A stretch of DNA of 64,000 bases from an uncultured Clostridia bacterium (GTDB lineage Bacteria; Bacillota; Clostridia; TANB77; CAG-508), in assembly GCA_963931155.1 (NCBI GenBank), contig OZ006978.1:1428692-1492691 (forward strand), read 5' to 3'. Positions 15,157 through 62,429 of the stretch are shown in pieces. Each line of letters begins with the position of its first letter. Position 1 is the first letter of the stretch. The translations under genes were made by a program, and so were the position numbers. The notes under the pieces are model-generated. The model was not told the DNA's origin and searched no databases. It saw only the letters and a program-made list of their open reading frames with translations.

Positions 15157-22039
<6,883 letters not shown>

Positions 22040-22043
22040 ATAA

Positions 22044-22301
<258 letters not shown>

Positions 22302-22308
22302 AAGGTGA

Positions 22309-23163
<855 letters not shown>

Positions 23164-23183
23164 AGAAAGGAGAACATTTAGTT

Positions 23184-24542
23184 GTGGGGACACATATTGA
23201 AGATTTAGTAAATCAAAAAGTAGAACAGATAAAAAATAAAGAAAACATTTTTGACTCTGGAACAGTTATAAAAGTAAAAGATTATATAATAGAAGTTTCT
23301 GGACTTGAAAATGTAACATACTTTGAAAAAGTAACTATTTGGGAAAAAGGAATGGGGTATGTAAATCAAATAAACGAAAACTCTGTTACAGTTGCAATTG
23401 TTAAGGAGAATGCCCCAATAAAAATAGGAGATATAGTAAAAACAACAGGAGAACAATTTAAAGCAGTATTCGCAAAAGAAGCAATTGGTAGAATAGTAGA
23501 TATATTTGGAACAGATTTATTGTCTGGAAAAGCATTTGAAAAAATAAAATATATAAATATAGAAAACGAAACTATTCCAATAATGGATCGTAGAGAAGTT
23601 AAAAGACCAATGCTTACAGGTATTGCAGGTATAGACTTAATATACCCAATAGGAAAAGGACAAAGACAATTAATAATAGGAGATAAAAAAACAGGAAAAA
23701 CTCAAATTGCTCTAGATACTATAGTAAATCAAGGCTCAGAAAGAGCAGAAAGTGAAAATGATGTAGTTTGCATATATATAGCAGTTGGAAAAACAAAAAA
23801 AGAAATAAAAACAATATATAATGAACTTCTAAAAAGAGGTGCATTATCATATACCACTATGGTAGTTGCTACTAATGATGATAAACAACCAGTAGTAAGT
23901 TTAATTCCTTTTGTTGGACTTTCTATAGCAGAAGAATACATGAAAATGAAAAAAGATGTAATAGTTGTAATAGATGACTTAAAAAAACATGCTGATACTT
24001 ACAGAGAAATAAGCTTAATTTCAGGAAAAACACCTGGTAGAGAAGCATACCCAGCAGATATATTCTATCTTCATGCAAGACTTCTAGAAAAAGGATGTCA
24101 ATATAAAAATGGTGGTTCAATAACAATACTGCCAATAGTAGAGACCAAAGGTGGAGATATAACAGACTATATTTCAACAAATATTATATCAATTACAGAT
24201 GGACAAATAGTTATGTCTGAAAAAGAATTTGCAAAAGGAAACAAACCAGCTATAAACTATAAAAACTCTGTTTCTAGACTAGGAGGAGCAGTTCAAAAAC
24301 CAGAAATTAAAAGCTTAGGAGCACAAATAAGAAGAACATTCTTAAGCTATCTAGAAACAAAAGAAGTTTATGAACTAGCAAATATGGATGAAATGACAGA
24401 AGAATTAAGAAACAAAATGAAAATAGGAGCACAAATACAAGAAGCATTAAACCAACCTAAGTTTATGCCATTATCTAATGAAGAAATAATAGATAAGTTT
24501 GAAGCAATAGTAAAACAGGAAGGATATACAAATGAAAATTAA
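23184..24542 (+). CDS. F1 ATPase alpha-subunit-like protein
   Basis: P-loop GDKKTGKT (alpha-type), KTPGREAYPADIFYLHARLLE (alpha signature), 452 aa, GTG start with RBS. Confidence 0.88.
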   Translation: MGTHIEDLVNQKVEQIKNKENIFDSGTVIKVKDYIIEVSGLENVTYFEKVTIWEKGMGYVNQINENSVTVAIVKENAPIKIGDIVKTTGEQFKAVFAKEAIGRIVDIFGTDLLSGKAFEKIKYINIENETIPIMDRREVKRPMLTGIAGIDLIYPIGKGQRQLIIGDKKTGKTQIALDTIVNQGSERAESENDVVCIYIAVGKTKKEIKTIYNELLKRGALSYTTMVVATNDDKQPVVSLIPFVGLSIAEEYMKMKKDVIVVIDDLKKHADTYREISLISGKTPGREAYPADIFYLHARLLEKGCQYKNGGSITILPIVETKGGDITDYISTNIISITDGQIVMSEKEFAKGNKPAINYKNSVSRLGGAVQKPEIKSLGAQIRRTFLSYLETKEVYELANMDEMTEELRNKMKIGAQIQEALNQPKFMPLSNEEIIDKFEAIVKQEGYTNEN

Positions 24543-25305
24543 AAGTGTAGTAAAAGTAATGAATTTTCATTCTTTGTTAAAGGTAGATAAAGCTAGACGT
24601 AGAGCAGAAAAATACTTTGCTTATGAAAAAGGTTTAACAGACTTTGTTGATAATATATTAAATAATAGAAATTTAATATTAGACAAAAAAATGTTAAAAC
24701 TAGATAAAAAACAAAAACCTTTAAACATATATATTGGAAACGATTTAGGATTTTGTGGTAACTTTAATTCAAATGTAAATAGAGAAGCACGTTTAGACAA
24801 AGAAAGTAATAAAATAATAATTGGAAAAAAAATATTAAATGGTAAATCAAATGTGCTTCTAGCTCTTACAAAAGAAGAATATTTACAAAATACAAAGCAA
24901 ATAGAAGATTTAATATATGATCAAATTGTAAATTCTAAAATAAGCGAAATGAATTTAATATATAATCATTACTATAATATTAGTAAAATAGAATTAGTAA
25001 AAAGAAAAATATTACCATTAGAAGAAGAAACATATACAACAAAATCACATAAAGAAGATTTTGCAATAGAAGGAGATATAAACGATATATTAATAAATAT
25101 AATTGCTATGTATTTATCATATGAAATTAGAGTTGCAACAGAAAATAGCTATGCATCAGAAAATGTGGCAAGGCAAATGCTAACAAAAGAATCTTTAAAG
25201 AAAATTGACGAAATTGAAGAAGAAGAATTAAGAGTAAGCAGAAAAGAGAAAAACGCAAAAAGCTTTAAAAAAGTTGTAGAAAACTATATAAAATTACAAA
25301 ATTAA
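24532..25305 (+). CDS. F1 ATPase gamma-subunit-like protein
   Basis: N-terminal IKSVVKVMNF..KVDKARRRAE helix, a GFCGNFNSN motif (compare the gamma GLCGGFNSN), and a C-terminal ASENVARQM helix (compare the gamma ASEHAARM). Confidence 0.8.
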   Translation: MKIKSVVKVMNFHSLLKVDKARRRAEKYFAYEKGLTDFVDNILNNRNLILDKKMLKLDKKQKPLNIYIGNDLGFCGNFNSNVNREARLDKESNKIIIGKKILNGKSNVLLALTKEEYLQNTKQIEDLIYDQIVNSKISEMNLIYNHYYNISKIELVKRKILPLEEETYTTKSHKEDFAIEGDINDILINIIAMYLSYEIRVATENSYASENVARQMLTKESLKKIDEIEEEELRVSRKEKNAKSFKKVVENYIKLQN

Positions 25306-25336
25306 AAAAACTATAAAGAAAAAGAATAAAAGATAA

Positions 25337-26999
<1,663 letters not shown>

Positions 27000-27085
27000 A
27001 AATCGACAAATCTAAAATTTAAATTAAATAATAAAAAATTTAAATGAAACTCATCTTTTAAGGACAAGTCTTAGATAAATAATAA

Positions 27086-27643
<558 letters not shown>

Positions 27644-27648
27644 AAAAT

Positions 27649-28452
27649 ATGAGAAGTGAAAACAATAAGAAAGTAAATAAGCCAAATAATAAGGTTGATA
27701 GAACAGTAAAAAATGGTGCAAGAGCACAAAAAAGAAAAAAAGAAAAAAAAGTTATAAAAAAAGAAACTGTATTTAGATTAATCTTAATACTAATATTATT
27801 AGTAGCAATAGTGGGAATAGGAATGTATATAACAAGACTAAATACAGACTTTATAGAAAATTACAATTTCTATCAATATATAGGAGGTAGAAAAATTTCT
27901 TATGAAGGTGCTTTAAAAATAACAAGCAAAGGGGAAATAACAGAACTTACAACAACAAATATGAATATCCAGTTAGATTCAACACCTTTATACTATGTAG
28001 ATGTAAACAATAAAGCATTATTTCCATCAAATATGGAATTAGTAATTCCAAGTACAAATGGACAAGTATATAAAATAAATAGATTTTCAAGTGTATATAC
28101 AGAAAGTGGTGTAGCATATTTAGAATATAGAGACAAAACGAAAGAATTACCAGAATCATTCATATTTGACGGTTCTAACTTATATCTATTCTTAGATAAT
28201 GCAACATTGGAAGTAGATGATAAAGAATATGAACTAACACCTTTATCATATGTTGTAGCATATAACAAATCTAGTATAGAAATATATAACAAATCAAAAG
28301 ACAAATATGAAATAATAAAAACAGACGGATATGGTATAGTAAAAACAGATGACTACACTATAAATGTAAGTTTAGACACTATAAAATACGGAGACAGAGA
28401 ACAACTTTTATTAAAAAGATTCGATGATTTACAAATATTTAATTTTGATTAG
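27649..28452 (+). CDS. 267-aa N-terminally anchored protein carrying the same membrane-proximal domain as the large surface proteins
   Basis: Basic N-terminus, a TM (LILILILLVAIVGIGMYI), and a domain with a DGSNLYLFLDN...SSIEIYN pattern matching the N-terminal regions of the 1784-aa, 496-aa and giant proteins. Confidence 0.65.
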   Translation: MRSENNKKVNKPNNKVDRTVKNGARAQKRKKEKKVIKKETVFRLILILILLVAIVGIGMYITRLNTDFIENYNFYQYIGGRKISYEGALKITSKGEITELTTTNMNIQLDSTPLYYVDVNNKALFPSNMELVIPSTNGQVYKINRFSSVYTESGVAYLEYRDKTKELPESFIFDGSNLYLFLDNATLEVDDKEYELTPLSYVVAYNKSSIEIYNKSKDKYEIIKTDGYGIVKTDDYTINVSLDTIKYGDREQLLLKRFDDLQIFNFD

Positions 28453-28496
28453 ATGTTTTTAGAGATGCTTTTGGGAAATGTTTGAGGAGACGCTTT

Positions 28497-28545
28497 TGAA
28501 ACGGTTCTTAAAACGATTTTCAAAAGCATCTTTTTTTGTGTAAAA
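28497..28545 (+). terminator. Rho-independent terminator ending the 15172-28452 operon
   Basis: GCTTTTGAAA...TTTCAAAAGC hairpin nested in AGATGCTTTTG..CAAAAGCATCT, followed by a T7 run. Confidence 0.65.
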
Positions 28546-28563
28546 AATATAAAAAAGAGTATT

Positions 28564-28590
28564 CCAATTTGAAATAATTATGATATAATA
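28564..28590 (+). promoter_or_regulatory. Promoter of giant gene copy 1 (extended -10 TGaTATAAT with TTCCAA -35)
   Basis: The same promoter block recurs upstream of copy 3 (50734-50761) and, in variant form, at 38090-38118 and 39498-39526. Confidence 0.5.
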
Positions 28591-28658
28591 AAAATGCCAT
28601 CGGGGACAGTGAAGTGACCCCATTGGCACAGCAAACAAGAGAAAAGGAGATTAGAAAA

Positions 28659-31600
28659 ATGAGAAAAGCTAAAAACCGTATGGCTCTAGAGAGAGAGAGA
28701 GAGCTACACTATTAAATAACCTACCAGTATTCATACTAGTAGGAATAGTTGTAATGCTAATAATACTAGTAGTAATATATTATATATTTTTAAGATATTC
28801 ACCAGAGCAAATAATAACATATAGTGGGTATGCAATAGAAGGAAAAGAGATGGTGGAGAACTTAAAGAGCAGTGATAAGTCCAAGTTAGCACCATACTTG
28901 GGCTTAATTGCTGTGCAAGAGAATGATTTGATATATAAAAAATTAAATTCATATTACATAGGAGAAGATGATAAAAAAGAAATAGACATAAATTATCCAA
29001 TATACATAAATGAAGGAAATGCACTTTTAAACTTAGGAGAGAACACAAAACTAATAACAGTAAATTATGAAGAAGTAGAAGGTTATCCAGACTTCATGAT
29101 GGCAGATGGAGTAATGTATAATGGAGCTGATATAACAAGAGCAGATGGAAATAAGTATTTATTCCTAAAAAGTGAAGATGAAATATATACAAATGTAGAA
29201 CCGATAACAATAACAACATCAACAGGAAAGTATACAATAAAAGAATATAGTAACATATATTTTGCAGAAGACCATATAGCATATTATGAAATGGAAGGCA
29301 TGCAAGGAAAAAACGAGCAAAATGAAAATAATGAAGAAAATAAACAAAACAATAATTTAAAAGATAGTTATTTAGAATATAAGCAAATAAAACCAATAGA
29401 CCCAGATTCAAAAACAAAGATAAATGGAGAAACAATAACATATAAAACATTACTAGAGAGACTAGAGATTTTGCAAACCGAAGAAAGCAACAATGAAAGT
29501 AATAACAACAAAGAAAATGCAACAAACGAAACAAAAGAAGACGATCTAAAAAATACGACAAACGAAGAGAACACAATTGCAGAAGAAACTACAGGACAAA
29601 ACAGTAATATAAGCAATAATCAAAATACGACAGACACAGAAAATAACAATAGCGACAAGGATGAAGACGAATGGCAAGAAGGAATGTGGGAAAAACCAGA
29701 AGTAAGCTGTACAGACTTTGAAAGTGATGTATATACAATAAGAACAAATCTATCAGTAAGAGATAGAGCAGGAGTTATAACAAGAGGAATAACATTTGAA
29801 ATATATCTAGATGGAAGACTAAATAGAAGAGTACAAGCTAGCCAAGCGGGAACACTAGAAATAACAAACTTACAACCAAGTTCAGAGTATGAGATAAGAG
29901 GAATATTTTATTACAATGATGAAAACGGAGTAGAACAAGAAGAAGAGTTTTACACAGGAAAAGTAACAACAAAATCAATAGATACATTAGGAACATTAGA
30001 CTTTAGCTTCCAAAATGGAAAAATATATTCAAATAAAATAGAATTAATACACTTGAAATTAAACAATGCCTTAAATGAAGAAGTAGTAAGAGGAATATCA
30101 AGGGTACAAGTAGAAATAGGAGATGCAGCATATAGATTAACAAATGCACAAATAGATGAATTAAAAGCAGGAAAAGAAATAACATATCAAACAAGTGAAA
30201 ACTTAACATCAAATAGTAAGATAAAATATGAAATAACAGCATTTGATAGATATGGAAATGAATTAAAAGAGAAGAACAACACAGGAGAAACAATAACATC
30301 AAAACAAGCACCAACATCAAGTATAAGAGTAACAAAACAAGATGTAACAGAAGTAGACTTAGAAATAACACTTACAAATAAAGATAATGTAAGTTTAGAA
30401 AACTATAGATATGAGATAACAAATCAAAGTGGAGATGTAGTAAAACAAGGAACACTAGGCAACAATGGAGTAGCAAGCAATGGAAACAAAGATGAATTAG
30501 CATTTACAGACTTAGACCCTAATGGATATTATCAAATAGTAATCTATGGAGATTATGACTTAGAAAATGGAGAAGGAAAACATCAAAATAGTGAACTAGG
30601 AAGAGGAAGCTTTGTAACAAGACCAATAGCATCACTAGGATATATGCAAGTGAAAATAGACGACAAAGAAGTAACACAAGATAGCATGAATCTTGGAATA
30701 AGTATAGATACAGTACAAACAGATGCAAGATTAGTAGCAATATTAAATAAAGTTGAAGTAGTAATCTATGACCAAGGAAAAAACACAGATAACGGTTCTG
30801 ATGAAAACAATGGACAATCAGAAGAAGAAACACAGGGAACAGAAATAAAGAGAATAACTCTAACAGATGAAGAAGTAGAAAAACTAAAAACATCAGAAGA
30901 AATAGAACTAAATCTAGAACAACTAACATCAAATACAAAATACAGAATAGATGTAATCACAACAGTAAAACAAGGTTCAGTTGAAGAAGTAGTAGAAGAT
31001 AAACAAAACATAGACCAAATAATAACACTAAAAATGCCAGCAGAAGTACAAATAAGAAACCAATTTGTAATAGGAACAATGATAGACCTAGACATGAGAA
31101 TAGAAGATATAGATGGAGCAGATTTAGTAGATAAAGTAAGAATAGAAGTAAGAGATAAAGACAATAAGTTAGTAGACTTAAGTGAAATGGCAACAAACCA
31201 AGATTATGAAAGAAAAACATATGAAGGACTAACACCAAATGAAACGTATACAATACTGGTATATGCACCACAATACAATGAAGGAAGCACAGATGCAACA
31301 TATAAAGCAGATTACTTATTAAAAAAGATAGAAATAGTAACAGAAACAGGAATAAGTGGAAAGTTAGATTTAATAGGACTAGAAAAAACACCAACAGGAA
31401 AGAATTTAATAGATGTAAGTTCTAAAGTAAATTGGTTTGTTTCTTGTTTTAATATAGGAAACTATAATTATCCAATAAGTTATGATGAAAATACAAATAT
31501 ACTTACGTTTTTAGGTACAAATCAATGGAGTTTAAGCTGCATGTATTATGATTTAAGCAAATATATTGGAAAAGAAATAACAGTAAGTTTTAAAGCAAAA

Positions 31601-34600
31601 TCTTCAGAAGATACTACATTGCAAATAATGGAAAAACGTGAAGATGATTTTTCAAATGTTGGTTATGTTAATCCACAGTTTGCTAATGTGACTACTGAAT
31701 GGAAAGAATATAGTTATACATTAACATTAAGTAAAACTGGATATTTGGGATTTTATGAACCAAATAGTGCAACAATTGAATTTCAAAATTTACAAGTTGA
31801 ACTTGGAAATAGAAAAACAGATTATGAAGAATTTAAATATGACTATAATGCAAATATTGCAGTAACTGTAATAGATGCGAGAAATGAAATTATAACAAAT
31901 GATTATTATGTACGCATTTATAAAAACAATGAGCAAATTCAAGAGATAAGGTATGAAGAAATTGGAGAAGAAAATAAAGTAGAAAATGTTCAAAAATCAT
32001 ACAATATAGAACCAAATGAAACATATAAAATAGAGCTATTAGTAAAAATAGCAGATAGATATTATGAACTAGATTCGCAAGAATTTTCAACAGAAGGTTC
32101 AAGAGAAGTTAAAGGAATACTTAATAAAAATGACTTTTTGAAAATTCAGCCATTTGGTGAATATATAGTATTAAGTGATTTAGATTTATCAGATTTTACA
32201 AGTGGAATGTATCGATTCGGAGCCGATAATTTACAATTTAATGGAAAAATAAATTTTAATGGTAAAACATTAACAAGAGGTATAAAAAATAGTGGTAGTC
32301 CTATTTTTTACTCTATTGGAAAAGAAGGAATAATAGAAAACTTAGATTTTAACATAAAAATGGACAATAATATGGAAAAACAAATGACGGGTGGACTTGC
32401 ATTCGATAATTATGGCAGTATAAAAAATATAATAATTAAATTAACAGAATCTTCAGAATTAAGAAATTCAAAGGTAGCTTTATGTGTTTGGGAAAACTAT
32501 GGAACTATAGAGAATTTTATTTTAAATTTTGAAGTTTCATTGTATGTGAACAATGAAGGAATTGGACTTACTAGTTGGAATTATGGCGTTGTAAAAAATG
32601 GGTATGCATATGGTGAAAATATAAAATTAACAAATAGTGTAAGTAGTAGTTCAAGTGTATGCAGTGTAATTGTAAGGCAAAATTCAAATAATGCAATTTT
32701 AGAAAATATATATACATTAGTAAGTATCGATAATCTTTATCCTGAAGGTAAAAAAGATAAAGCTTGTATTGTATTACAGAATGTAGGTAATGCAACGGTA
32801 CAAAACGTTTATTCTGTGGGATTCGGGGAAAATACAGATTTAACACTTGGACCAAATGTATATAGTAAAGTATCTAAAAAAATTTATAATAATTATTATT
32901 TTTCAAATGAAACATTTACGAGCAAATTTGAAACAAAAGGAAACAAATTATCGTTATGGGATGCAGAGTTTCAAAATCAATTGATAAATACGGATGAAGC
33001 ATTTATTGTAGATGATTTAGTAAATGAAGGCTATTATCCTCAACTTAATTTACCAGATATAATGCCCGCACAAGAATATATAGAATTACCAGAGGTAAAA
33101 GATGCAGATTTGCCAGATATATTATCAACGAAAGTTTTAGAACAAGGTACAGATACTGTTAAGGTACAATTTAGTGTAAATAATCCATCAGCAGAACAAA
33201 TAACAGAAATAAATATACAAAATATAGAAGTAGAAATATTATCGCAAGAATATAATAATGGAAAAAGTATTGTAATAGCAGAATTAAAAAATCCAATTAT
33301 ATGTGTATCAAAATATAATGTAATAAGTTTAACAGTAAAAGGAGCATTTGGAGGAGGATATACAAGACCATATGAAGAAGGAGAAAGAGTAATAAATGTA
33401 GATTTATATAAAGAGATATGGGATGTAAATGATTGGAAAGCTATAAATGAATCGCCAACAGAAAATTATATGCTTATGACTGATTTAGATTTTATAAATG
33501 AGGGAAATACTGTAAATGTTTCAAGAGTAGATGGAATTATAAATGGAAATGGACATACTATATCAAATATAAATTTAACAAATAATTATTATTTTATAGG
33601 AGAGTTATATGGAACGTTAGAGAATTTATTTATTGACAAGTTTAATCAAAGTGTTTCTATATATGGAGGCGCGATTGCGACGGCAAAAACGAATTCTTTA
33701 ATAGATAATGTGCATTTAAAAAATGTACAAATTTATAAAAATTATAAAAATGGACAGTGGGGAGCTGGAGGTCTTTTACGTATTGCTCAATATTGTACAG
33801 TTAAAAATTGTTCGGTTAATAATATAAAGATAAATACAGAAGGAACATCTAATGAAATTAGTGTAGGTGGTCTTGTTGGAATATCTGAAGGTACAACAAT
33901 AGAGAATTGTTTTGTACAAGGATTAAATGTGACTGATTCTAGGGGAGTTAGTTCTGGTATAGGAGGAATAGTTGGAATTGCTCGTGGTTCAAATAGAATT
34001 AAAGCTTGTTATTCAGAAGGAATTATAAATTCTGACAACTTTAATGTTGGAGGTATTGTAGGAAAAGTGGAATCAAAAGACAACATAGAAAATTGTTATT
34101 CGAAAGTAACAATATCAACAACAAACATTAATGTTGGAGGTATAATTGGCAGTTATTCCGAAACAGATTTAAGCACTATAGAAAATAATTTAAGCATTGG
34201 AAATATATATACAACATCTGGAATAAATACTTTAAATAGAATAGTTGGAAACAATAATGATACGGTAAATAATAACTATGCTTATGAAAATCAAAAATTA
34301 AATGGCTATATAAGTAAAGAAGAAAAAGGAGCAACGCTTTTAGATAAAAATAACATATTAAACTTGAATTTAGGAGAGAGTTATAATTATGACAATAAAT
34401 CAAGAGGAATATTACCGAAATTATATAATACAGAAGGAACAGAGTTATTACCAAACCAGAGCGATATATTATTAGATAATACTTCAGAAGATATGTCAGA
34501 ATTGGAAGTAAAAAGTATAGAAGCATCAAAACCTAATACAACTGAAGCAGAAATTTCTATTAGTATTAATAATCCAGAACAAATTGAAATAACAGGAGTA

Positions 34601-37600
34601 ATAATAGAGGACATGACTGTTACGGAAGTGTCGAGAAATGTAACTCAAAATGGAATGACTAATATTGTAGTAAAAGCAACACCTAATAGATATTATGATA
34701 GTTACAAATTAACTGGAATATATTATAAAGATTTAAAAGGTGAAGAAAAAATAGTAGAATTGGAAGCTGAAATTGAAGTACAGTTTTATAAAGAAATATA
34801 TACATATGAAGATTGGCAAAGTATAGAAGAAGGTACATATCAAAATTATAGATTAATGGCAGATATAGATTTTAGCGGAAGAACTAATGTAAAAAACAAT
34901 ATAACAGTAAATAGATTGGAAGCGGAAAATAGAATTTATACTTTAAAAAATATTGATTTATCATATGATTCACCAAATACAGGATTAATAAATAATGTAA
35001 AATCAAGCATAAAAAATATAGGCTTTGAAAATATAAAATTAACAAACACATCAAATTCTGGAAATTATTTTGGCGTAATATCAAGTAACAGTGGCAATAT
35101 GGAAAATTTAAATTTTAAAGATATAATTATAAATGCTAAAGGCATAAGTTATTTAGGATGTATTGGGGGAATGGTTTCAGGCGATGGAATAAAAAATATT
35201 AAATTACAGAATATAACTATAAATGGAAATGGTTATATAGGAGGTTTGCTTGGATATATTAAATTAGATAAAGAAGGAATCATAAAAGATATAAAAGGAA
35301 ATAATCTTACAATTGAAGGAAAAAGTAATTATGTTGGAGGAATTATAGGATATCAATATGGAAAGTATCTTGAAACAAGCAATATTTCTATTAGTGATTC
35401 AAATATAAAAGGCAATGATTATACTGGTGGTATTTGGGGATATATTTATTACTATAAAATTACTTATTTGGTTGTTAATAATTTAGATATTTCAGGACAT
35501 TCGCATGTCGGTGGAATTGCAGGTTATTCAATAACTATTTCTAGTGCAACGGAATATTTATATCAGAATATGGAAATATTAGATTCTGATATTACAGGAA
35601 CTGGTAATTATATTGGTGGTGTTACTGGTTATAGCTATGGAGGTAATATTAAAAATTTTTCTTCAAGTAATTGCACTATTAATATACCAAATTCGAATTC
35701 TGAAGATATAGGAGGAGTTGTAGGAAGAACTGCATGGGTAACTGTTAGTAACTTTGACATATCTAAAATAGAAATCTATGGAAAAGGCAAGAATGTAGGA
35801 GGTATTATTGGAAATAATGCAGACAACGAATCTGCAGATGGTGATGCTATTAATGGATACTTGAGTGAAGGCTTTATCGAGGGCAATCAAAATGTTGGAG
35901 GAGCAGTTGGAAGAGCAAGTTATGGTTCAATCAGGGACATATATATAAATGCAAATGTAAATGCAGAATATAGTTGTGCTGGGGGAGTATTTGGATATAT
36001 GGATAACACTAGAATGACAGCATCTGGTTTTCAATTGAAAGTGACAAATTCAATGGTATTAGATACTCAGGTAAAATCATCAACAAAGTCAGGAGGAATA
36101 ATTGGAGATATGGCAAAAGCAATATATAGAGAACAAGTATTTTATTACAATAACTATATAGATGCAGATGTAACAAGTGATAATACATCAACTGGTTCAC
36201 TAATAATTGGAGGAAGACCAGATGAAAATCCATACATTACAAATACATACGTATATAAGTACAGTACTTTAAATGGAGATTATGTATACACAACAAATGA
36301 TAATATAGATGATAAGCAATATTTAGTAAGAAATGATTTGGATAAAACAGAAACATTTAGAGATAAAATTGGACTTGGAACAACTTATTTGGACTATTCA
36401 TCTTTAGCTGAAGGAAAGTATCCAAAAATAAAAGATTCTTATTTATATGAACCAGATCTACAAACAGGGATAGACTTACCAACAGATCCAGACATTACAA
36501 TAATCAATTCATTAAATGATGCAAATACAGTAGGTAACAAAAATAATCTTGCGAACACAAATGATATTTCAACTCAAAGCATAGAAGCATTACCAACTAT
36601 TACAGCATATCCAGTTTCAGTAAATGAAATAAACATAGATTTTAGCTCAATGCCAGAAGGAGTAAGTTTCACATACTATATAAACGGACAAGAAAAAGAA
36701 AAGATAGATTTAGCAAATAAGACATATACATTTAATTACAATTATCAAGATACATTAGAAATAAAACTTACAAATAGCACAGATGAAGAAACAATCACAA
36801 TAAATCCTGACAATGTAAGAAGTGAGGCAAGCTTAGTAGGAGATAACAACGCATACATACTTGGAACAAGCTTATTCATTAATGGAGAATTGCAACAAGG
36901 GGAATATGTAAATGTATATGGTGGATTCGCATTAAATAAAAATGGACAAGTATTTGATATCGCAACAAAACAATTAGTTAGAAAAGATGCTACAACTACA
37001 ACAATTCTTTCAGAAACTGCAAAACCACTTCATACATACAACTACAAAGATAATAACATTGAAGTATATGGAACATATAGCAAAGTAAATGATAATGTAA
37101 AATCACAAATATACAACGTAAGAAGCGGTATATTATCAGCACTATCAAATAATTTAGACATGAAGATAAACAACTATATATCAGACAACTATAATAATAA
37201 AGAATACCAAACAATATTATCAAAAAACGGAGAAATAGTAGACTTAAAAGAAAAATTACAATATCCAGGAAACTTCTTTAGCAGAAATATAAAGCAAATA
37301 GTACAAAATAATGACCAAGAAAAAACAGAAATGATGGTATTGTACAATACAGGAAAAGTAATAGTATTTAACTATGTAACAGGAGAAGTTATATATGAAA
37401 ACGACGAAAAAGCAGATGAAGGACTAGTAGATTATATAGCTGGAAGTGTATCAAACATATGGGATAATTATGAAGAAAAACAAGAGGAATATTCAAAAGG
37501 AAAAGAATTAGCAGCAAAGCTTTCAGAAATGCCAATAGAAGAAGCAATGAAGCAAAAAAATAACAACAATAATGGAACAGCAATAGAAATGGCAAACAAT

Positions 37601-37906
37601 GAGCAAGAAGAAAGTAATACAATTACAAATAGTGCAGATAATTATATTACAGTATATAATGGAAACACAGATGAATATGATGTATATAGTGCAAATGAAA
37701 TCATAGGAGGAGAAGAAGAAAATCCAGTATCAGAAACAGAAAAAATAAAACAAAATGGACTAGAAAATATATACAAATATGCAACAAAAGAAGAAACGAA
37801 ACCACAAACAAACGGAGCTGTGATAGTAGCTGTAATAATTGTTGTAGCAATAATTGCATTAGTTATACTAAGAAGAATAATTATAAACAACAATAGGAAA
37901 AAATAA
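28659..37906 (+). CDS. Giant (~3080 aa) GLUG-repeat surface protein, paralog 1. It has N-terminal signal-anchor and C-terminal TM segments. It is phase-OFF in this assembly: the RBS-proximal ATG at 28659 is out of frame with the main ORF (28754-37906) because of the (AG)8 tract.
   Basis: N-terminus MRKAKNRMALERERE, then (AG)n, then TLLNNLPVFILVGIVVMLIILVV... The ectodomain has a shared N-terminal module, Fn3/Ig-like domains, a CBM-like variable module and long arrays of ..NVGGIIG../..VGGLVG.. (GLUG-type) repeats. The C-terminal TM is ..AVIVAVIIVVAIIALVILRR. Confidence 0.85.
28688..28703 (+). repeat. (AG)8 microsatellite inside the 5' coding region of giant gene 1
   Basis: Direct reading of the sequence. 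It lies between the upstream ATG (28659, frame 0) and the signal-anchor/main ORF (frame 2). Confidence 0.95.
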
Positions 37907-37974: not shown

Positions 37975-38022
37975 AAGAAGAAGATTAAAAATAAAACAAC
38001 TAAATCTTCTTCTTTTTTAAAG
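37975..38022 (+). terminator. Rho-independent terminator after giant gene 1
   Basis: AAGAAGAAGATT-loop-AATCTTCTTCTT then a T-run. Confidence 0.75.
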
Positions 38023-38033
38023 TCGTTTGAAAA

Positions 38034-38081
38034 ATGTGCAAATTTTCACAAAAGTCCTTTGAAAAATGTGTAAATTTTCAC
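38034..38081 (+). promoter_or_regulatory. Two tandem Crp/Fnr-family-like palindromes (TGTGCAAATTTTCACA and TGTGTAAATTTTCACA) inside a 33-bp tandem direct repeat, upstream of the COG1373 ATPase promoter
   Basis: TGTG-N8-CACA inverted repeats read from the sequence, centred ~32 bp apart. A third partial half-site overlaps the -35. Confidence 0.4.
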
Positions 38082-38089
38082 AAAAGTCG

Positions 38090-38118
38090 TTTGATTTTTG
38101 TGAAAAATTATGATATAA
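38090..38118 (+). promoter_or_regulatory. Promoter of the COG1373 ATPase gene
   Basis: TTGATT, 17 nt, TGaTATAAT. Confidence 0.5.
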
Positions 38119-39653: not shown

Positions 39654-39869
39654 ATGATAGCACGTGAAAGTCGCATGGCTCTAGAGAGAGAGAGAGAGAG
39701 AGAGAGAGTTACACTATTAGATAACAGATTCTTCGAAGGAAGAATCCTATTAAACGTGCTTAAAACTTTTAATAGAATAGATAAGTTAATTACAGGGATA
39801 GACTGTATCACTGTAAATGTTAGTAAAAGAAACATTTATGGTGATATGGCCTATCCTTTTTGCGTGTGA
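39654..39869 (+). CDS. Leader peptide ORF (71 aa) containing the (AG)13 tract and reading through the downstream terminator hairpin
   Basis: RBS AAAGGAAAGG then an ATG. The peptide is MIARESRMALE(RE)n..RFFEGRILL..TGIDCITV..AYPFCV*. Its stop lies immediately 3' of the terminator T-run. The other two frames stop within 6 codons after the repeat. Confidence 0.5.
   Translation: MIARESRMALERERERERVTLLDNRFFEGRILLNVLKTFNRIDKLITGIDCITVNVSKRNIYGDMAYPFCV
39683..39708 (+). repeat. (AG)13 microsatellite in the copy-2 leader ORF
   Basis: Direct reading of the sequence. Confidence 0.95.
39795..39861 (+). terminator. Strong composite intrinsic terminator/attenuator inside the copy-2 leader, upstream of the giant-gene start codon
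   Basis: GGGATAG..TATCAC..AAATGTT-loop-AACATTT..GTGATA..CTATCC (20 bp of nested stem) followed by TTTTT. Confidence 0.7.
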
Positions 39870-39925: not shown

Positions 39926-42900
39926 GTGAGAAAAGATAGAATAAATAAAATACAAGTAAATAATAAAAAGAAACGTAAAGAAAAGAGAGGATTGAACAAT
40001 AAAGGAAAAGGCAAAAGAATAAATGTAAAGAATTTACCTACATTTATATTGATAGGACTAATCTTAATGATAATCATAATAGCAATAATCTATTATGTGT
40101 TTTTAAGGTATGCACCAGAACAAATAATAACATATAGTGGATATGCAATAGAGGGACAAGCATTAGCAGAAAACTTAAAAAATAGTGACATATCTAATGT
40201 TAAGCCATACTTGGATTTAGTAGAAGTACAAGAAAATGATTTATTGTATAAAAGATTAAATTCATACTATGTAGGTGAAGATGATAAAAAAGAGATAGAT
40301 ATTAATTATCCTATATACATAAACAATGGAAATGCTCTTTTAAACATAGGAAAGAACACAAAACTAATAACAGTAAATTATGAAGAAGTAGAAGGATATC
40401 CAGAGTTCATGATGACAGATGGAGTAATGTATAATGGAGCAGACTTAACAAGAGCAGATGGAAATAAATATATATTCTTAAAGAGTGAAGATGAAATATA
40501 TACAAATGTAGGAGCAATAAAGATAACAACAGTGTCAAACACATATAACATAAAAGAATTTAGTAATATATACTTTACAGAAAATGCTATTACATATTAT
40601 GAAATGGAAGATGGATATTTACAATATAAGAGAATAGATGATGTAGATAAAAACTCAAAAATAGAAGTAAATGGAGAAAGTTTAACATATAAAACATTCC
40701 TAGAAAGATTAGGAATAATAGATACAGAGGAAAACAACAGCAATGATAAAAAAGATAATGAAACCGAAGAAGCAAACAAGATAAATGAAAATACAGTAGA
40801 AGAACCAGAGCAAGTAAATGAAGAAAACTCAATAGATGAAAACAATAATACTAATGATTCCACAGAAAATAAGCAAGAAGAAAATCAAGAGCCAGAATGG
40901 CAAGAAGGAATGTGGGAAAAACCAGAAGTAAGTTGTACAGACTTTGAAGGAGAAGTATACACAATAAGAACAAATTTATCAGTAAGAGATAGAGCAGGAG
41001 TTATAACAAGAGGAATAACATTTGAAATATATTTAGATGGAAGATTAAACAGAAGAGTACAAGCTAGCCAAGCGGGAATACTAGAAATAACAAACTTAAG
41101 ACCAAGTTCAGAATATGAGATAAGAGGAATATTCTATTACAATGATAAAAACGGAGTAGAACAAGAAGAAGAGTTCTACACAGGAAAAGTAACAACAAAA
41201 TCAATAGATACATTAGGAACATTAGACTTTAGCTTCCAAAATGGAAAGATATATTCAAATAAAATAGAGCTAATACATCTAAAACTAAATAACAACATAG
41301 ATGAAGAAGTAATAAAAGGAATATCAAGGTTGCAAATAGAGATAGGAGATATAGCATATAGATTAAGTAATAACCAAGTAAATGATATAAAAGCAGGAAA
41401 AGAAATAACATACCAAACAAGTGAAAGTCTAACATCAAATAGTAGGATAAAATACAAAATAACAGCATTTGATAGATTTGGAAACGAATTAAAGGAGAAG
41501 AACAATGAAGGAGAAACAATAACCTCAAAACAAATGCCAACAGCAAGTATAAGACCAACAAAACAGGATGTAACAGAAATAGAGATAGAAGTAACACTAA
41601 ACAATAAAGATAATGTAAAACTAGAAAACTATAGATATGAAATAACAAACCAAAGCGGAGAAGTAGTAAAGAGTGGAGCATTAGGAAAAAACGATAATGG
41701 CACAGATGGTGGAAACTCCAATGAAGGAGAAAATATAAAAGATGGTACAAAGGAAACATTAAAATTTAACGACTTAGACCCAAATGGATATTATCAAATA
41801 GTAATCTATGGAGACTATGACCTGGAAGATGGAACAGGAATAAAAGAAAATGCAGAATTAGGAAGAGGAAGTTTTGTAACAAGACCGATAGCATCATTAG
41901 GATATATGCAAGTAAAAATAGATGATAAAGAAATAACACAAAATAGTATGAACCTTGGAATAAGCATAGATGAAAACCAAACAGATGCAAGACTTTTAGC
42001 AATACTAGATAAAGTAGAAGTAGTTATATATGACCAAGGTAAAAATAGCGACCAAATCAATCAAGGACAAGAAGAACAAAGCAAAGAAACCGAAGTACAA
42101 CGCATCACCTTCACTAAGGAACAAGTTCAGCAACTAAAAGTAGCAGAAGAGGTAGAACAAGACTTAGAGAGGCTAAATTCAAACACAATATACAGAATAG
42201 ATGTAATAACAACAGTAAAACAAGGAACAGTAGAAGAAATAGTAGAAGATAAACAAAACATAGAACAATTAATAACTTTAAAAATGCCAGCAGAAGTACA
42301 AATAAAGAACCAATTTGTAATAGGTACAATGATAGATCTAGACATGAGGATAGAGGATCTAGACAATGCAGTATTAACAAACAAAGTAAGAATAGAGGTA
42401 AGAGATAAAGACAATAAATTAATAGACTTAAGCGAAATGCAAACAAATGCAGACTACGAAAGAAAAACATATGAAGATTTAACACCTAATGAAGAATATA
42501 GAATAATAGTATATGCACCACAATACAACATAGGAAGTACAGATGAAACATATGAAGCAGATTACATCTTAAAAGAAATAAAGATAGTAACAGAAACAGG
42601 AATAAGTGGAAAGCTAGACTTAATAGGACTAGAAAAAGCACCAACAGGAAAGAACCTAGTAGATGTAAGCTCAAAAGTAAATTGGTTTGAAAGATGTTTC
42701 GATTTATCATATTCTTATGGTATAAATTATGACGAAAACACAAAAATACTCAAATTAGGAGAAAAACTAAGTGACAGTATGAAAAAGAAAGACTATTACG
42801 ATTTAAGCGAATATTTAGGACAAGAAGTAACAATAAGTTTTAAGGCAAGAACTGAAAATAATGCAAAATTGGAAGTGATAGAGAAACTTAATAATGACTT

Positions 42901-45900
42901 TTATAATACGGATTGGAAATCTTATTATAAAATAAATGATTTAAGCAAAGAGTGGCAAGAATACCAATACACATTAACTTTGAGCCAAACAGGGTATTTA
43001 GGATTTTATGTGTTAGAAGGTTATGCAACAGTAGAAATACAAAATTTACAAGTAGAACTTGGTAATAGAAAAACAGATTATGAAGAATTTAAATATGATT
43101 ACAATGCAAATATAGCAGTAACTGTAAGTGATGAAAGAGACGAAATAGCAACAAATGATTACTACATAAGGATATACAAAAACAATGAACAAATCCAAGA
43201 ACTACGTTATGAAGAAATAGGAGAAGACAACAAAGTAGAAAATGCTATAAAAACATACAATATAGAACCAAATGCAAATTACAAAATAGAGCTTTTAGTA
43301 AAAATAGGAGGGAGATACTATGAGCTAGATTCACAGGAATTTACAACAGAAGGAGCAAAAGAAATAAAAGGAATATTTAACTTAAATGACTATTTAAAAA
43401 TACAACCATTCGGCTCATATATTATTTTAAATGATTTAGATATGCAAAATTCTAGTAGTAAATATATTTTTGGAGCGTTTGTGGAAGAAGGTGGTTTTTC
43501 TGGAACCATAGACTATAATGGTAAAAAAATACATATTAGTTCTAATGAATTTTTTGGTCTGTTTAGAAGAATTGAAAAGAATGGAACAATTAAAAATGTT
43601 GTATTTGATATAAATTTTGATAATCCTTCAGATATATCAGAATTTCCTAGTTTAGTTGCCTATAATCATGGAAAAATGGAAAATATACAAATTAATATGT
43701 GGCAATCATCGAATGGTACAGTAGGTTTATATAAAATATTATGTGATTATAATTATGGAGTAGTTGACAATTTTATTATAAATGTAAAAAATGATATAAA
43801 TGTTTTGGGCAGTAGCCAAGTAGGTTTAATACTTAGAAATAATTTTGGAACGGTGAAAAATGGATATATTTATGGGCATGATATTAATGTAACAGAAACA
43901 AATAACGGGTATAAATATTTGGGGATAGTGTCTAACTATGCAAATGCTACAATATCTAATGTTTTTACACTTACAAATATTAATTATTTAAATTCTTTAA
44001 GTGATAATAATACTGCAAACATAGTATACAATAATTACGAGAATGCAACAGTACAAAATGTATATTCTGTTGGTGTTGGAAAGAATACAACAGATTTAAC
44101 ACACGGCCCTAATGTACATGTTAAAGGTTCAAAAAAAGTATATAACAATTATTATTTTGCCGATGAAATATTTACAAGTGAATTAGAAACAAAAGGAAAT
44201 ATGTTATCTTTATGGGATTCAACATTTCAAAACCAAATAATAAATCAAGATGGAGCTTTTATAGTAGATGAACTAGTAAATAAAGGATTTTACCCACAAT
44301 TAAATATGCCAGAATGTATGCCAGCACAAGAGTATATAGAATTACCAGAAGTAAAAGACGCAGACTTACCAGACATATTATCAACTAAAGTATTAGAGCA
44401 AGGCACAAATACAGTAAAAGTAGAATTTAGTGTAAATAATCCATCATCAGAAACAATAAGTAATATACAAATAGAAAATATAGATGTTGATATACTTTCA
44501 CAAGAGTATAATAATGGAAAAAGTACAGTAATAGCAGAATTAAAAAATCCAATAATTTGCGTATCAAGTTACAATGTACTAAGTATAAGTACAAAAGGAG
44601 CATATGGAAGTACATATAAAAGAGAATATGAAAAAGGAGAAAGAGTAATAAATGTAGATCTATATAAGGAAATATGGAATGTAACCGATTGGAAAGCAAT
44701 TGCAGATTCACCAACAGAGAACTATATGTTAATGGAGGATTTGAACTTTATAAATGAAGGAAATTCCATCCACATTTCAGAGATAAGAGGAATATTAAAT
44801 GGAAACGGACATACTGTTTCTAACATACATTTAAATAATGGAGAACCATTGTTTTACATGGTATATGGCACATTAAAGGATATGTATATAAAAAATTATA
44901 TACAAGAAGGAAAGATAACACATGGGGGTATTATAGCCGGATTAGCTTCTGGAAGAATAGATGGAGTACATGTTACAAATGCAGAGGTGAATTCTCAGGA
45001 AAATACTGGTACAGTAATGATCGGAGCTTTGATTGGGGATTGTTGGAATTCTTCAGTTACTAATTGCTCTGTAAACAATTCTTCAGTAAATGTTAATATG
45101 GAAACAGGAACTCTTTACTTGGGTGGGGCTATAGGTCAAGTTCAAAATACAACAATAGATTGTTGTTACACATATAATATTTCTATGAATGATTCTAATG
45201 TTACAAATGCAGGAATTGGAGGTATAATTGGCACAGGTTCATATAACAAAATTACTAATTGCTATTCAGGAGGAAAGATTGTATCTAAAAATATTAATGT
45301 AGGAGGAATATTGGGACTATCAGGTGCAGAAGTAGAAATAGAAAATTGCTATTCAACAGTTAATATATCTACAAATAATATAAATCTAGGAGGAATAATT
45401 GGAAGAAGTACGGCGGTAGATACAGAAGGAATTGTAAACAATTTAAGTATAGGAAAAATATATACAACATCTGGAATAGAAAGCATAAATAGAATAATAG
45501 GAAGTACCACTAATACAACAGATAATAATTATGCATATGAAAAACAATTATTAAATGGATATGCAAGTGAGGAAGAAAAAGGTGCTACTTTATTAACTAA
45601 AGAAGAAGTGCTAAATTTGAATTTGGGAGAAAGCTTTAATTATGATAAAAAGGGGGAAGGAATATTACCAAAGTTATATAATACAGAAGGAACTGAGCTA
45701 TTACCAAATCAACAAGATATATTCTTAGATGATAGTATGGAAGTTGGAAATGTAAATCTAGAAGTTGAAAGCATTGAAACAGCAAAACCAAATACAACTG
45801 AAGCAGAAATAACAGTAAAAATAAAGAATCCAGAAGAAATAGAAATAACAGATTTAGAAATAGAAGATATGGAAGTTGCAGAAGTAACAAGAAACGTAAC

Positions 45901-46639
45901 TCAAAATGGAATAACGAGTATAACAGTAAGAGCAACTCCAATAAGATATTTTGATAATTATAAATTAACCGCAATAAAATATAAGATGGATAGCATAGAA
46001 GAACAATCAAAAGAGATAGAACTAGAAATACCAGTACAATTTTATAAAGAAATATACACATACGAAGATTGGCAGTCTATAGAAGAAGGAATATATCAAA
46101 ATTATAGGTTGATGGCAGATATAGACTTTACAGGAAAGCCAAGTATAAAAAATAATATAAAAGTGAATAGGCTAGAAGCAGAAAATAAAATATATACATT
46201 AAAAAATATAAAACTAGAATTTAGTGATGCAAATACAGGATTAATAAACAATGTAAAGACAAGAATAAAAAATATAGGATTTGAAAACATAATATTAACT
46301 AATATAGCCTCTACAGGCAATTATTTTGGAATTATATCTACAAATGGTGGAATTATTGATAATGTAAAATTTAGCAATATAACAATTGAAGCACAAAAAA
46401 TGAACTATGTTGGAATAGTTGGAAGTTTTGTGTTCGGAGAAGTAACAAATGTAGAAATGGAAAACATTAACGTAAATGGTAATTCTTATATTGGTGGTTT
46501 AGCCGGAGAATGTAACTATAATGTTAATAATGTAAAGGCAAAAGATATTCATGTTACAGCTGTAGATAACTATGCTGGAGGAATTATGGGAATAACTACT
46601 GGTCCAACTCGGAAATCCAATTTATCAAGAAAATATTAA
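39926..46639 (+). CDS. Giant GLUG-repeat surface protein, paralog 2, N-terminal 2237-aa fragment. It has its own GTG start, so it is uncoupled from the leader repeat. It ends at a +1 frameshift.
   Basis: It is homologous throughout to paralogs 1 and 3. The reading frame switches from frame 2 to frame 0 within 46596-46620 (AAA/AAAA homopolymer). Confidence 0.8.
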   Translation: MRKDRINKIQVNNKKKRKEKRGLNNKGKGKRINVKNLPTFILIGLILMIIIIAIIYYVFLRYAPEQIITYSGYAIEGQALAENLKNSDISNVKPYLDLVEVQENDLLYKRLNSYYVGEDDKKEIDINYPIYINNGNALLNIGKNTKLITVNYEEVEGYPEFMMTDGVMYNGADLTRADGNKYIFLKSEDEIYTNVGAIKITTVSNTYNIKEFSNIYFTENAITYYEMEDGYLQYKRIDDVDKNSKIEVNGESLTYKTFLERLGIIDTEENNSNDKKDNETEEANKINENTVEEPEQVNEENSIDENNNTNDSTENKQEENQEPEWQEGMWEKPEVSCTDFEGEVYTIRTNLSVRDRAGVITRGITFEIYLDGRLNRRVQASQAGILEITNLRPSSEYEIRGIFYYNDKNGVEQEEEFYTGKVTTKSIDTLGTLDFSFQNGKIYSNKIELIHLKLNNNIDEEVIKGISRLQIEIGDIAYRLSNNQVNDIKAGKEITYQTSESLTSNSRIKYKITAFDRFGNELKEKNNEGETITSKQMPTASIRPTKQDVTEIEIEVTLNNKDNVKLENYRYEITNQSGEVVKSGALGKNDNGTDGGNSNEGENIKDGTKETLKFNDLDPNGYYQIVIYGDYDLEDGTGIKENAELGRGSFVTRPIASLGYMQVKIDDKEITQNSMNLGISIDENQTDARLLAILDKVEVVIYDQGKNSDQINQGQEEQSKETEVQRITFTKEQVQQLKVAEEVEQDLERLNSNTIYRIDVITTVKQGTVEEIVEDKQNIEQLITLKMPAEVQIKNQFVIGTMIDLDMRIEDLDNAVLTNKVRIEVRDKDNKLIDLSEMQTNADYERKTYEDLTPNEEYRIIVYAPQYNIGSTDETYEADYILKEIKIVTETGISGKLDLIGLEKAPTGKNLVDVSSKVNWFERCFDLSYSYGINYDENTKILKLGEKLSDSMKKKDYYDLSEYLGQEVTISFKARTENNAKLEVIEKLNNDFYNTDWKSYYKINDLSKEWQEYQYTLTLSQTGYLGFYVLEGYATVEIQNLQVELGNRKTDYEEFKYDYNANIAVTVSDERDEIATNDYYIRIYKNNEQIQELRYEEIGEDNKVENAIKTYNIEPNANYKIELLVKIGGRYYELDSQEFTTEGAKEIKGIFNLNDYLKIQPFGSYIILNDLDMQNSSSKYIFGAFVEEGGFSGTIDYNGKKIHISSNEFFGLFRRIEKNGTIKNVVFDINFDNPSDISEFPSLVAYNHGKMENIQINMWQSSNGTVGLYKILCDYNYGVVDNFIINVKNDINVLGSSQVGLILRNNFGTVKNGYIYGHDINVTETNNGYKYLGIVSNYANATISNVFTLTNINYLNSLSDNNTANIVYNNYENATVQNVYSVGVGKNTTDLTHGPNVHVKGSKKVYNNYYFADEIFTSELETKGNMLSLWDSTFQNQIINQDGAFIVDELVNKGFYPQLNMPECMPAQEYIELPEVKDADLPDILSTKVLEQGTNTVKVEFSVNNPSSETISNIQIENIDVDILSQEYNNGKSTVIAELKNPIICVSSYNVLSISTKGAYGSTYKREYEKGERVINVDLYKEIWNVTDWKAIADSPTENYMLMEDLNFINEGNSIHISEIRGILNGNGHTVSNIHLNNGEPLFYMVYGTLKDMYIKNYIQEGKITHGGIIAGLASGRIDGVHVTNAEVNSQENTGTVMIGALIGDCWNSSVTNCSVNNSSVNVNMETGTLYLGGAIGQVQNTTIDCCYTYNISMNDSNVTNAGIGGIIGTGSYNKITNCYSGGKIVSKNINVGGILGLSGAEVEIENCYSTVNISTNNINLGGIIGRSTAVDTEGIVNNLSIGKIYTTSGIESINRIIGSTTNTTDNNYAYEKQLLNGYASEEEKGATLLTKEEVLNLNLGESFNYDKKGEGILPKLYNTEGTELLPNQQDIFLDDSMEVGNVNLEVESIETAKPNTTEAEITVKIKNPEEIEITDLEIEDMEVAEVTRNVTQNGITSITVRATPIRYFDNYKLTAIKYKMDSIEEQSKEIELEIPVQFYKEIYTYEDWQSIEEGIYQNYRLMADIDFTGKPSIKNNIKVNRLEAENKIYTLKNIKLEFSDANTGLINNVKTRIKNIGFENIILTNIASTGNYFGIISTNGGIIDNVKFSNITIEAQKMNYVGIVGSFVFGEVTNVEMENINVNGNSYIGGLAGECNYNVNNVKAKDIHVTAVDNYAGGIMGITTGPTRKSNLSRKY

Positions 46640-50933: not shown

Positions 50934-60592
<9,659 letters not shown>

Positions 60593-61813: not shown

Positions 61814-62044
61814 ATGAGCAAGCTTGAAAGCCTTGGCGCTGTACACACACACACACACACACACACAATATGTTCTTACCAAAAGGAATGTTGGAAACAA
61901 AGTACAAGAATAGATAGAAGATTCTTCGAAGGAAGAATCCTATTAAGCATGCTTACAATAAATAATTATATAGATAACAAAGGTAAAACAGGGATAGACT
62001 GTATTACTGTAGGTGTTCGAAAAAGAGCACTTATGGCAATATAG
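61814..62044 (+). CDS. Orphan leader-peptide ORF containing (AC)12, encoding (HT)n and reading into its own terminator
   Basis: ATG with an AG-rich RBS. The peptide is MSKLESLGAV(HT)n..RRFFEGRILL..GKTGIDCITV..*. It has the same hairpin and terminator modules as the copy-2 and copy-4 leaders. Confidence 0.45.
   Translation: MSKLESLGAVHTHTHTHTICSYQKECWKQSTRIDRRFFEGRILLSMLTINNYIDNKGKTGIDCITVGVRKRALMAI
61843..61867 (+). repeat. (AC)12 microsatellite
   Basis: Direct reading of the sequence. Confidence 0.95.
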
Positions 62045-62057
62045 CCTATCCTTTTTT
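61991..62057 (+). terminator. Leader-associated intrinsic terminator (GGGATAG...CCTATCC then T6)
   Basis: The same outer stem as in the copy-2 and copy-4 leaders, with a different inner helix. Confidence 0.6.
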
Positions 62058-62207
62058 GTGCTTATTTTTCTGAAATGAAAATAAATACATCACTAGACAA
62101 GAAAAAGTTTAATACGGAAATTAAGAAAATCACGTAATACAACTAAAAAGAGAAGCTAAAAAAAGCTTGAAAAACAAGGAAAAAGAAGAAAAGGAGACTA
62201 GAAAGAA

Positions 62208-62429
<222 letters not shown>

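Follow-up and report, generated by a model that had tools for sequence, protein, structure and literature searches.

A predicted phase-variation switch formed by an AG repeat in the leader of a giant surface-protein gene of an uncultured Clostridia bacterium

A perfect (AG)8 tract lies within the first 15 codons of a giant gene for a membrane-anchored surface protein in a stretch of 64,000 nucleotides (nt) of an uncultured Clostridia bacterium (GenBank assembly GCA_963931155.1, contig OZ006978.1, positions 1,428,692 to 1,492,691; referred to below as the window, with positions counted from its first letter). We propose, with a probability of roughly 0.85, that this tract is a slipped-strand contingency switch which is at present in the OFF position. 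The gene, here called giant gene 1, is one of four giant genes in the window that share a single type of leader, and the features on which the proposal rests are collected in Table 1.

The leader of giant gene 1 and its reading frames

Read directly in the window sequence, the leader has a ribosome-binding site (RBS; AAGGAG, 28644-28649) upstream of an ATG at 28659, and its codons are ATG AGA AAA GCT AAA AAC CGT ATG GCT CTA GAG AGA GAG AGA GAG CTA CAC TAT TAA. The tract begins 29 nt after this ATG (Tandem Repeats Finder (TRF) and direct reading) and the stop, TAA 28713-28715, follows three codons past it, giving an 18-amino-acid (aa) peptide, MRKAKNRMALERERELHY*, at eight units, as was confirmed by script. 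The open reading frame (ORF) of giant gene 1 extends over 9.15 kb in a frame 2 nt ahead (-1) of the leader ATG. It is open back to a TAA at 28670, and direct reading found no ATG, GTG or TTG in this frame between that TAA and the ATG at 28754. With 7, 10 or 13 units (3k+1) ATG 28659 is joined to the gene-1 ORF, while with eight it is out of frame; removing one AG unit or adding two yields the fused product MRKAKNRMALERER-ATLLNNLPVFILVGIVVML.... The repeat is thus of the kind that defines a contingency locus, being perfect, having a unit that is not a multiple of three and lying inside an ORF after the start, and its unit number toggles between the truncated peptide and a leader fused to the 3050-codon ORF. 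The first-pass annotation of this DNA had described ATG 28659 as the sole RBS-bearing start, reading through (AG)8 to a stop shortly after, had placed the signal anchor and a 9.1-kb ORF in the -1 frame, and had called 3k+1 units ON and eight OFF, with fusion on loss of one or gain of two units; all of this was reproduced from the sequence.

The other wrong frame ends at TAA 28717-28719, and the two overlapping stops shut both wrong frames 9 and 13 nt past the tract. This double-stop motif, ATTA(A/G)ATAA, is kept in all leaders of the window and in those of BRZ_MF, a metagenome-assembled genome (MAG) considered below. Every frame of (AG)n reads Arg-Glu, so that a tract of any length leaves the net charge of the N-region unchanged and introduces no stop. 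The expected number of (AG)8 matches in dinucleotide-preserving shuffles was 0.00, against four separate AG tracts of at least eight units in the window; the leader AG tracts are not chance features.

The conservation of the signal anchor points to the same start. In an alignment of ten family members, comprising the reconstructed genes 1 and 3, genes 2 and 4 and database homologues, residues N20, P22, F24, L26 and G28 are invariant, and the codons of all five lie after the tract and before ATG 28754. The methionine at 28754 is M32 of this alignment, an ordinary residue within the transmembrane helix LPxFILxG...IYYxFL, and initiation there would drop the basic N-region and 11 helix residues. 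Since the invariant helix residues are encoded before ATG 28754, the true N-terminus must lie upstream, where it can be reached only via the tract. Beyond the anchor, Pfam and PDB comparisons of the giant proteins gave little more than GLUG motifs and weak matches to fn3 and to a putative IgA1 protease, and an exact look-up found neither the 3050-aa product nor its 404-aa neighbour on record.

Gene 1 appears to be its own transcription unit, because a terminator (28461-28537) is followed by a putative promoter box (28562-28589). The putative promoter scores under the threshold of a simple promoter scan; by eye, the same TGATATAAT box is also seen ahead of leaders 2, 3 and 4a. Leader 3 furthermore has a 5' stem-loop upstream similar to that of the predicted gene-1 transcript. 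A switch of the type in which a simple sequence repeat (SSR) alters promoter spacing was considered and rejected, since the tract is within a translated ORF and the TGATATAAT box lies some 100 nt upstream of it.

Under the proposed mechanism, gene 1 would be transcribed from its own promoter, downstream of the terminator, and ribosomes would initiate at ATG 28659. At eight units they would terminate three codons past the tract, leaving the signal anchor and the 9-kb message untranslated (OFF). Slippage during replication would add or remove AG units, presumably also at a length of eight, and at 7, 10, 13 or further such numbers of units the basic leader MRKAKNRMALE(RE)n would be fused to the helix LPVFILVG..., so that a type II-anchored giant protein would be made and inserted (ON). 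The protein is accordingly predicted to be lost in the OFF state and, when made, to be located at the surface.

Table 1. Features of the four giant genes and their leaders in the window
Feature	Position	Strand	Basis or remark
Terminator, long hairpin and U-run after the upstream 267-aa gene	28461..28537	+	RNA fold -27.9 kcal/mol, z -3.9
Putative promoter: TTCCAA, 16-nt spacer, extended -10 TGATATAAT	28562..28589	+	By eye, inferred
5' stem-loop of predicted transcript, UGCCAUCGGGG...CCCCAUUGGCA	28595..28628	+	Fold
RBS and leader start	28644..28661	+	AAGGAG, ATG 28659
(AG)8 switch tract	28688..28703	+	8 = OFF; 7, 10, 13... = ON
Double stop, TAA 28713 and TAA 28717	28713..28719	+	Sequence
10-bp hairpin over three of the four bases of AGGA 28741-28744	28720..28743	+	Fold
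Coding region of conserved signal-anchor helix, LPVFILVGIVVMLIILVVIYYIFL	28721..28792	+	Internal ATG 28754 inside
Giant gene 1	28754..37906	+	3050 aa from internal ATG; GLUG motifs, weak fn3 match
Leader 2, 71-aa ORF, ON frame	39654..39869	+	(AG)13 at 39683-39708; stop TGA 39867
Small hairpin of leader 2	39727-39746	+	Fold
Intrinsic terminator of leader 2/gene 2, 26-bp hairpin and U5	39794..39861	+	Fold, z -6.1
Giant gene 2	39926..46639	+	GTG start
Leader 3, fused type, OFF, MKKRKNRMALE(RE)n LHH*	50934..51008	+	(AG)17 at 50963-50996
Giant gene 3	51047..60592	+	Follows leader 3
Leader 4a, 76-aa ORF, ON frame	61814..62058	+	(AC)12.5 at 61843-61867; stop 62042 in terminator 3' arm
Terminator hairpin of leader 4a, then U6	~61990-62052	+	Fold
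Leader 4b, 73-aa ORF, ON frame, ends after its terminator	62208..62429	+	(AG)16 at 62237-62268
Giant gene 4	from GTG 62486, runs off window	+	Leaders 4a and 4b in series upstream

Natural alleles and rival explanations

Alleles in the ON frame were observed directly. When the reconstructed ON form of gene 1 served as a protein query, the search returned a database protein (P0001) that reads MKGKSKKMKKRKNRIALERERERATLLNNLPVFILVG..., and its DNA (L062) has (AG)10, which is in frame. Population contigs of the same species were fetched via the flanking proteins from ENA and Logan assemblies; JGI metagenome contigs had no match to either a locus-specific or a family-wide pattern. One gene-1 orthologue (L066) has (AG)13, is in frame and had its gene called from the leader ATG, and another (L067) has 12 units. 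The sister leaders are more variable: orthologues of leader 2 have 11, 13, 14 or 18 units and those of leader 3 have 10, 11, 17 or 18, the (AG)10 allele (L091) being in frame. Ungapped comparisons of flanks inflate the mismatches where long-read contigs have indels, and only pairs with zero mismatches were therefore used to find differences confined to the tract. At leader 3, contigs with 17 and 18 units from one assembly (L085 and L086) have no mismatch in 6796+960 nt, nor do contigs with 11 and 17 units (L082 and L083) in 6796+962 nt; at leader 2, the window (13 units) and L074 (14 units) are identical over 3019+1261 nt. A single assembly, ERZ21549406, contains leader-3 contigs with 11, 17 and 18 units. 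The tract lengths are thus polymorphic in the manner of contingency loci, although the evidence is weaker for gene 1 alone than for the sister loci. Together with the conserved helix, the in-frame alleles and the frame design of 53 leaders from other genomes (see below), this polymorphism supports the first-pass interpretation as slipped-strand translational phase variation.

Four short-read (Logan) contigs (L068-L071) end inside leader 1, which suggests that assemblers break at these repeated and heterogeneous leaders. Frameshifts, frequently located at A-runs, shorten many database homologues of the giant genes (P0002 (L061), P0003, P0007 and P0008), even where the contig is 100 kb or longer; these frameshifts could be long-read errors or extra homopolymer switches within the genes.

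Several observations weigh against a working switch at gene 1. The tract has eight units in the window, in L063-L065 and in five similar places, all of which represent near-identical strains, and tracts of 12 and 13 units come solely from strains that carry single-nucleotide polymorphisms as well, the 13-unit strain (L066) having 13 mismatches in 2539 nt. Shorter repeat tracts slip less often. Since the tract is constant at eight in near-identical strains, the gene-1 switch may be slow. It is this constancy, in the same set of assemblies in which leaders 2 and 3 vary, that makes a slow or locked switch the most serious of the four rivals to phase variation: gene 1 would be locked OFF, as a young pseudogene or silent reserve copy, eight units being too few for switching at a useful rate, and would perhaps serve only as a recombination donor for gene 3. 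Over their N-terminal 130 aa genes 1 and 3 hardly differ, a pattern with which gene conversion would be compatible. We nevertheless consider a locked gene unlikely, since an intact, stop-free ORF of 3050 codons in a genome of 28% GC argues for continued selection, since slightly diverged strains do carry 12 and 13 units at this locus, 13 being in frame, and since the loss of one AG unit would put gene 1 back in frame.

Some of the length data furthermore come from long-read assemblies, which can miscount repeats. However, the lengths also differ among SPAdes and MEGAHIT (both Illumina-type) and hifiasm (HiFi) contigs, and because Illumina-type, HiFi and Canu/Flye contigs are all involved, the variation is not the error of one platform. 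That the gene-1 frameshift itself is an assembly or sequencing artefact, with the real gene in frame, would fit the error-prone nature of dinucleotide repeats and the short-read contigs that break inside leader 1, but it is scarcely credible given that SPAdes, Canu and Flye assemblies and the window all have the same eight units and that an OFF majority with a double stop after every tract forms a consistent design over more than 50 loci.

The last point against the switch concerns ATG 28754, which has a weak Shine-Dalgarno-like AGGA 9 nt upstream and may allow some leaky internal initiation. If gene 1 were expressed constitutively from this ATG, which is the first start of the long ORF and was the start chosen by gene callers in the OFF assemblies, the tract and the short ORF would be irrelevant. 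This we regard as quite unlikely. The AGGA, the only such site ahead of the internal ATG, is largely buried in the 10-bp hairpin at 28720-28743, a protein begun at 28754 would lack the family-invariant N, P, F, L and G positions as well as the basic N-region, and natural alleles of 10 and 13 units are in frame from the leader ATG. Very unlikely, too, is expression without a change in the DNA, with the AG run acting as a site of programmed ribosomal frameshifting or of transcriptional slippage. The repeat does stand beside the hairpin at 28720-28743, in an arrangement superficially like that of recoding sites; but direct reading of the gene-1 leader found no X XXY YYZ slippery heptamer, the stop follows only three codons past the tract, the length of the DNA tract varies between identical genomes, and an Rfam scan of the window at gathering thresholds matched no known family. 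A programmed frameshift site was rejected on the absence of the heptamer, the variable tract and the lack of an Rfam match. Slipped-strand phase variation thus remains the preferred explanation of the gene-1 leader.

Sister leaders, wider distribution and neighbourhood

The window holds five leaders, with (AG)8, (AG)13, (AG)17, (AG)16 and (AC)12.5, and one design precedes all four giant genes: an RBS, an ATG, about seven codons and ...CGCATGGCTCT-(AG)n-NTACAYYATTARATAA (TRF and direct reading). While the first-pass annotation was right about the tract of gene 1 and its logic, its single-tract view missed this five-leader system and the use of the leader as an attenuator at two of the giant genes. 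The leaders are wired in two ways. Genes 1 and 3 have the leader fused to their signal anchor, with tracts of 3k+2 units that are each followed by a stop after three codons (OFF). At genes 2 and 4 the leaders are separate ORFs of 71-76 codons followed by a terminator, and each gene has its own GTG, RBS and basic N-region. Leaders 2 and 4b, at 3k+1 (13 and 16 units), and the AC leader 4a are all in the long (ON) frame, which crosses a small hairpin and then a hairpin of 26-28 bp with a U-run, to stop just past the terminator hairpin (39867, 62427) or in its 3' arm (62042). A simple terminator scan missed these long hairpins owing to its loop and stem limits, and explicit folding was used instead. 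The terminator hairpins of genes 2 and 4 fold much better than shuffles (z -6.1 and -6.4), and the structure at leader 2 is kept in 13 sequences from two species, with double changes at four pairs. In leaders 2, 4a and 4b, and in six divergent MAG families, the short frames stop far upstream and the long frame in or after the hairpin. It is therefore probable, by analogy with a known attenuator discussed below, that a ribosome on the long leader, and so only in the 3k+1 frame, would melt the terminator hairpin and permit read-through into genes 2 and 4.

Ahead of gene 4 the promoter scan found no promoter-like site between leaders 4a and 4b, and the same tandem of AC and AG leaders occurs in the MAG BRZ_MF bin81 (L016). 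This suggests that the two attenuators may together form an AND gate.

When one genome per species was scanned for GGCTCT(AG)7, 60 loci were returned, four of which resemble chance matches. Most belong to a few MAGs from rabbit and BRZ samples that are labelled 'uncultured Clostridia bacterium', one MAG containing as many as about 20, and a few to MAGs of Clostridium sp. and Gastranaerophilales. Among 53 leaders from other genomes with an RBS and an ATG, two frames stop soon after the tract (median 8 nt, maximum 49 nt) and the third is long, giving either a leader-fused protein of about 480 aa or a leader ORF of 26-83 codons whose end falls within or shortly past a hairpin followed by a U-run. 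No more than seven of the 53 are in the long (ON) frame (binomial P = 8e-4 against one third, for loci that are not independent). The leader peptides of different families are unrelated in sequence and therefore argue for a regulatory ORF over a functional peptide.

The rabbit-gut MAGs Lapin-027 bin83 and Lapin-022 bin14 (L002-L060) carry about 13-20 copies of the protein family of about 480 aa, each fused to the leader MKSKNACGS(RE)n. The majority, with 11 units, are OFF and the 13-unit copies alone are in frame; no convincing Pfam domain was found in the family.

GGCTCT precedes every AG tract and GCTGT or ACTGT every AC tract (window positions 28682, 39677, 50957, 62231 and 61838; L012, L016), and the junctions of flank and tract are palindromic (CTCT|AGAG, TGT|ACA). 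The conservation of GGCTCT across lineages is partly imposed by the search pattern and was not counted as independent evidence. Further upstream, a GAAAnCnnTTGn motif is common to leaders of different MAG lineages, even where the frame across it differs. The conserved palindromic flank may act in cis on slippage. Taken together, these features could describe a portable module that has spread in uncultured gut anaerobes, with up to about 20 loci per genome and a flank acting in cis on slippage, a reading that we hold only tentatively and consider rather doubtful. Its parts may be an RBS, an ATG, about seven codons, GAAAnC..TG-GCTCT with (AG)n or GCTGT with (AC)n, and a double stop; its hosts may be several Clostridia-class MAG lineages and possibly Gastranaerophilales; and its wirings may number three, namely N-terminal fusion, leader-peptide attenuator and, at gene 4, two serial attenuators forming an AND gate.

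Directly upstream of the switched giant genes, genes for F1-like ATPase alpha, gamma and beta subunits (23184-26737; context 15172-28452) stand without Fo, delta and epsilon genes and belong to a block that also encodes a 1784-aa protein and an fn3 protein. Alpha and gamma score under the NCBIfam atpA and atpG cut-offs and beta barely at that of atpD, and alpha and beta give strong but sub-cut-off scores against the F1-like families of Mycoplasma gliding (MMOB1660/1670) and MSC_0618/0619. ATPase genes with AAA_14 and DUF4143 domains (38164-39471 and 49487-50701) alternate with the giant genes, the first having a direct repeat of 32 nt x 2.4 (38019-38094) and its own TGATATAAT box upstream. The RNase R gene (7390-9465) contains, at its 3' end, a tandem repeat of 36 nt x 2.4 (96% match, 9375-9462). 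A tRNA scan of the window found none. Since germination genes are present in the window, the host is taken to be a spore former.

Comparison with known switches

Translational phase variation by SSRs in the 5' coding part, or the part for the signal peptide, of genes for surface proteins is exemplified by the CTCTT repeats of Neisseria opa, the poly-G of pilC and the CAAT repeats of Haemophilus lic1. Gene 1 resembles this class in that a perfect non-triplet repeat just past the start sets the frame by its length and that wrong frames stop immediately; the target, moreover, is a surface protein of a paralogous family, and tract length differs among close genomes. The general class of translational SSR phase variation is reviewed in the discussion of PMC3894217. 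Unlike the systems of Gram-negative pathogens, that of gene 1 is found in an uncultured, spore-forming, low-GC gut bacterium of the class Clostridia. Its AG unit, unlike those of opa, pilC and lic1, encodes a charge-neutral (RE)n in all frames, its targets are membrane-anchored proteins of 2200-3200 aa, and neighbouring genes employ this leader cassette as an attenuator.

In the vlp and vmc surface lipoprotein families of Mycoplasma, an SSR in the promoter or 5' flank acts on transcription initiation. The giant genes are similar to these families in being paralogous surface-protein genes that each have a conserved 5' module with a hypermutable repeat, and in being combinatorial and mostly OFF. 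They differ in that the tract lies in a translated leader, the genetic code is standard and the host forms spores.

The closest parallel to genes 2 and 4 is found in the pil1 and pil3 loci of Streptococcus gallolyticus, where experiments showed that GCAGA repeats alter how far a leader extends with respect to a stem-loop terminator (Danne et al. 2014, PMC3894217); read-through at pil1 was tested with mutants of the ATG or the stop and by deletion of the terminator, and the pil1 system also functioned in Lactococcus (PMC3894217). Genes 2 and 4 and many MAG loci likewise have an SSR in a short leader ORF followed by a stem-loop terminator, and as at pil1 short peptides stop well before the hairpin and the long peptide within or just after it, from which read-through is predicted. 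The attenuator architecture can therefore not be regarded as new, its precedent being PMC3894217. The two systems differ in that one frame in three is long here, while pil1 yields long peptides in both of its out-of-frame states, that the repeat is AG or AC instead of GCAGA, and that two serial attenuators stand before gene 4. Gene 1 itself was rejected as a pil1-type attenuator, since it has no terminator and its leader is joined directly to the ORF, but its leader is homologous to the pil1-type leaders of genes 2 and 4.

Literature searches found no description of the AG-leader system, PMC3894217 being the sole mechanistic precedent found. Since gene 1 has the testable properties of a contingency locus and these searches returned no account of the AG-leader system, we conclude that the mechanism is known and that the host organism and the gene family are new. 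The use of one cassette in two wirings, the tandem attenuators and the presence of up to about 20 loci per genome are of moderate interest at the level of the system. They suggest that uncultured, spore-forming Clostridia of the gut, a group in which phase variation is almost undescribed, possess a large, SSR-driven repertoire of surface genes that can be switched, and the giant surface proteins beside the F1-like ATPase operon would be expected to be expressed stochastically and in combinations. There is also a practical side, in that annotation pipelines mis-start or split such genes and short-read assemblies break at the leaders. Finally, the switch made of a leader peptide and a terminator, so far reported from one streptococcus, is suggested by genes 2 and 4 and their counterparts in other MAGs to be widespread.

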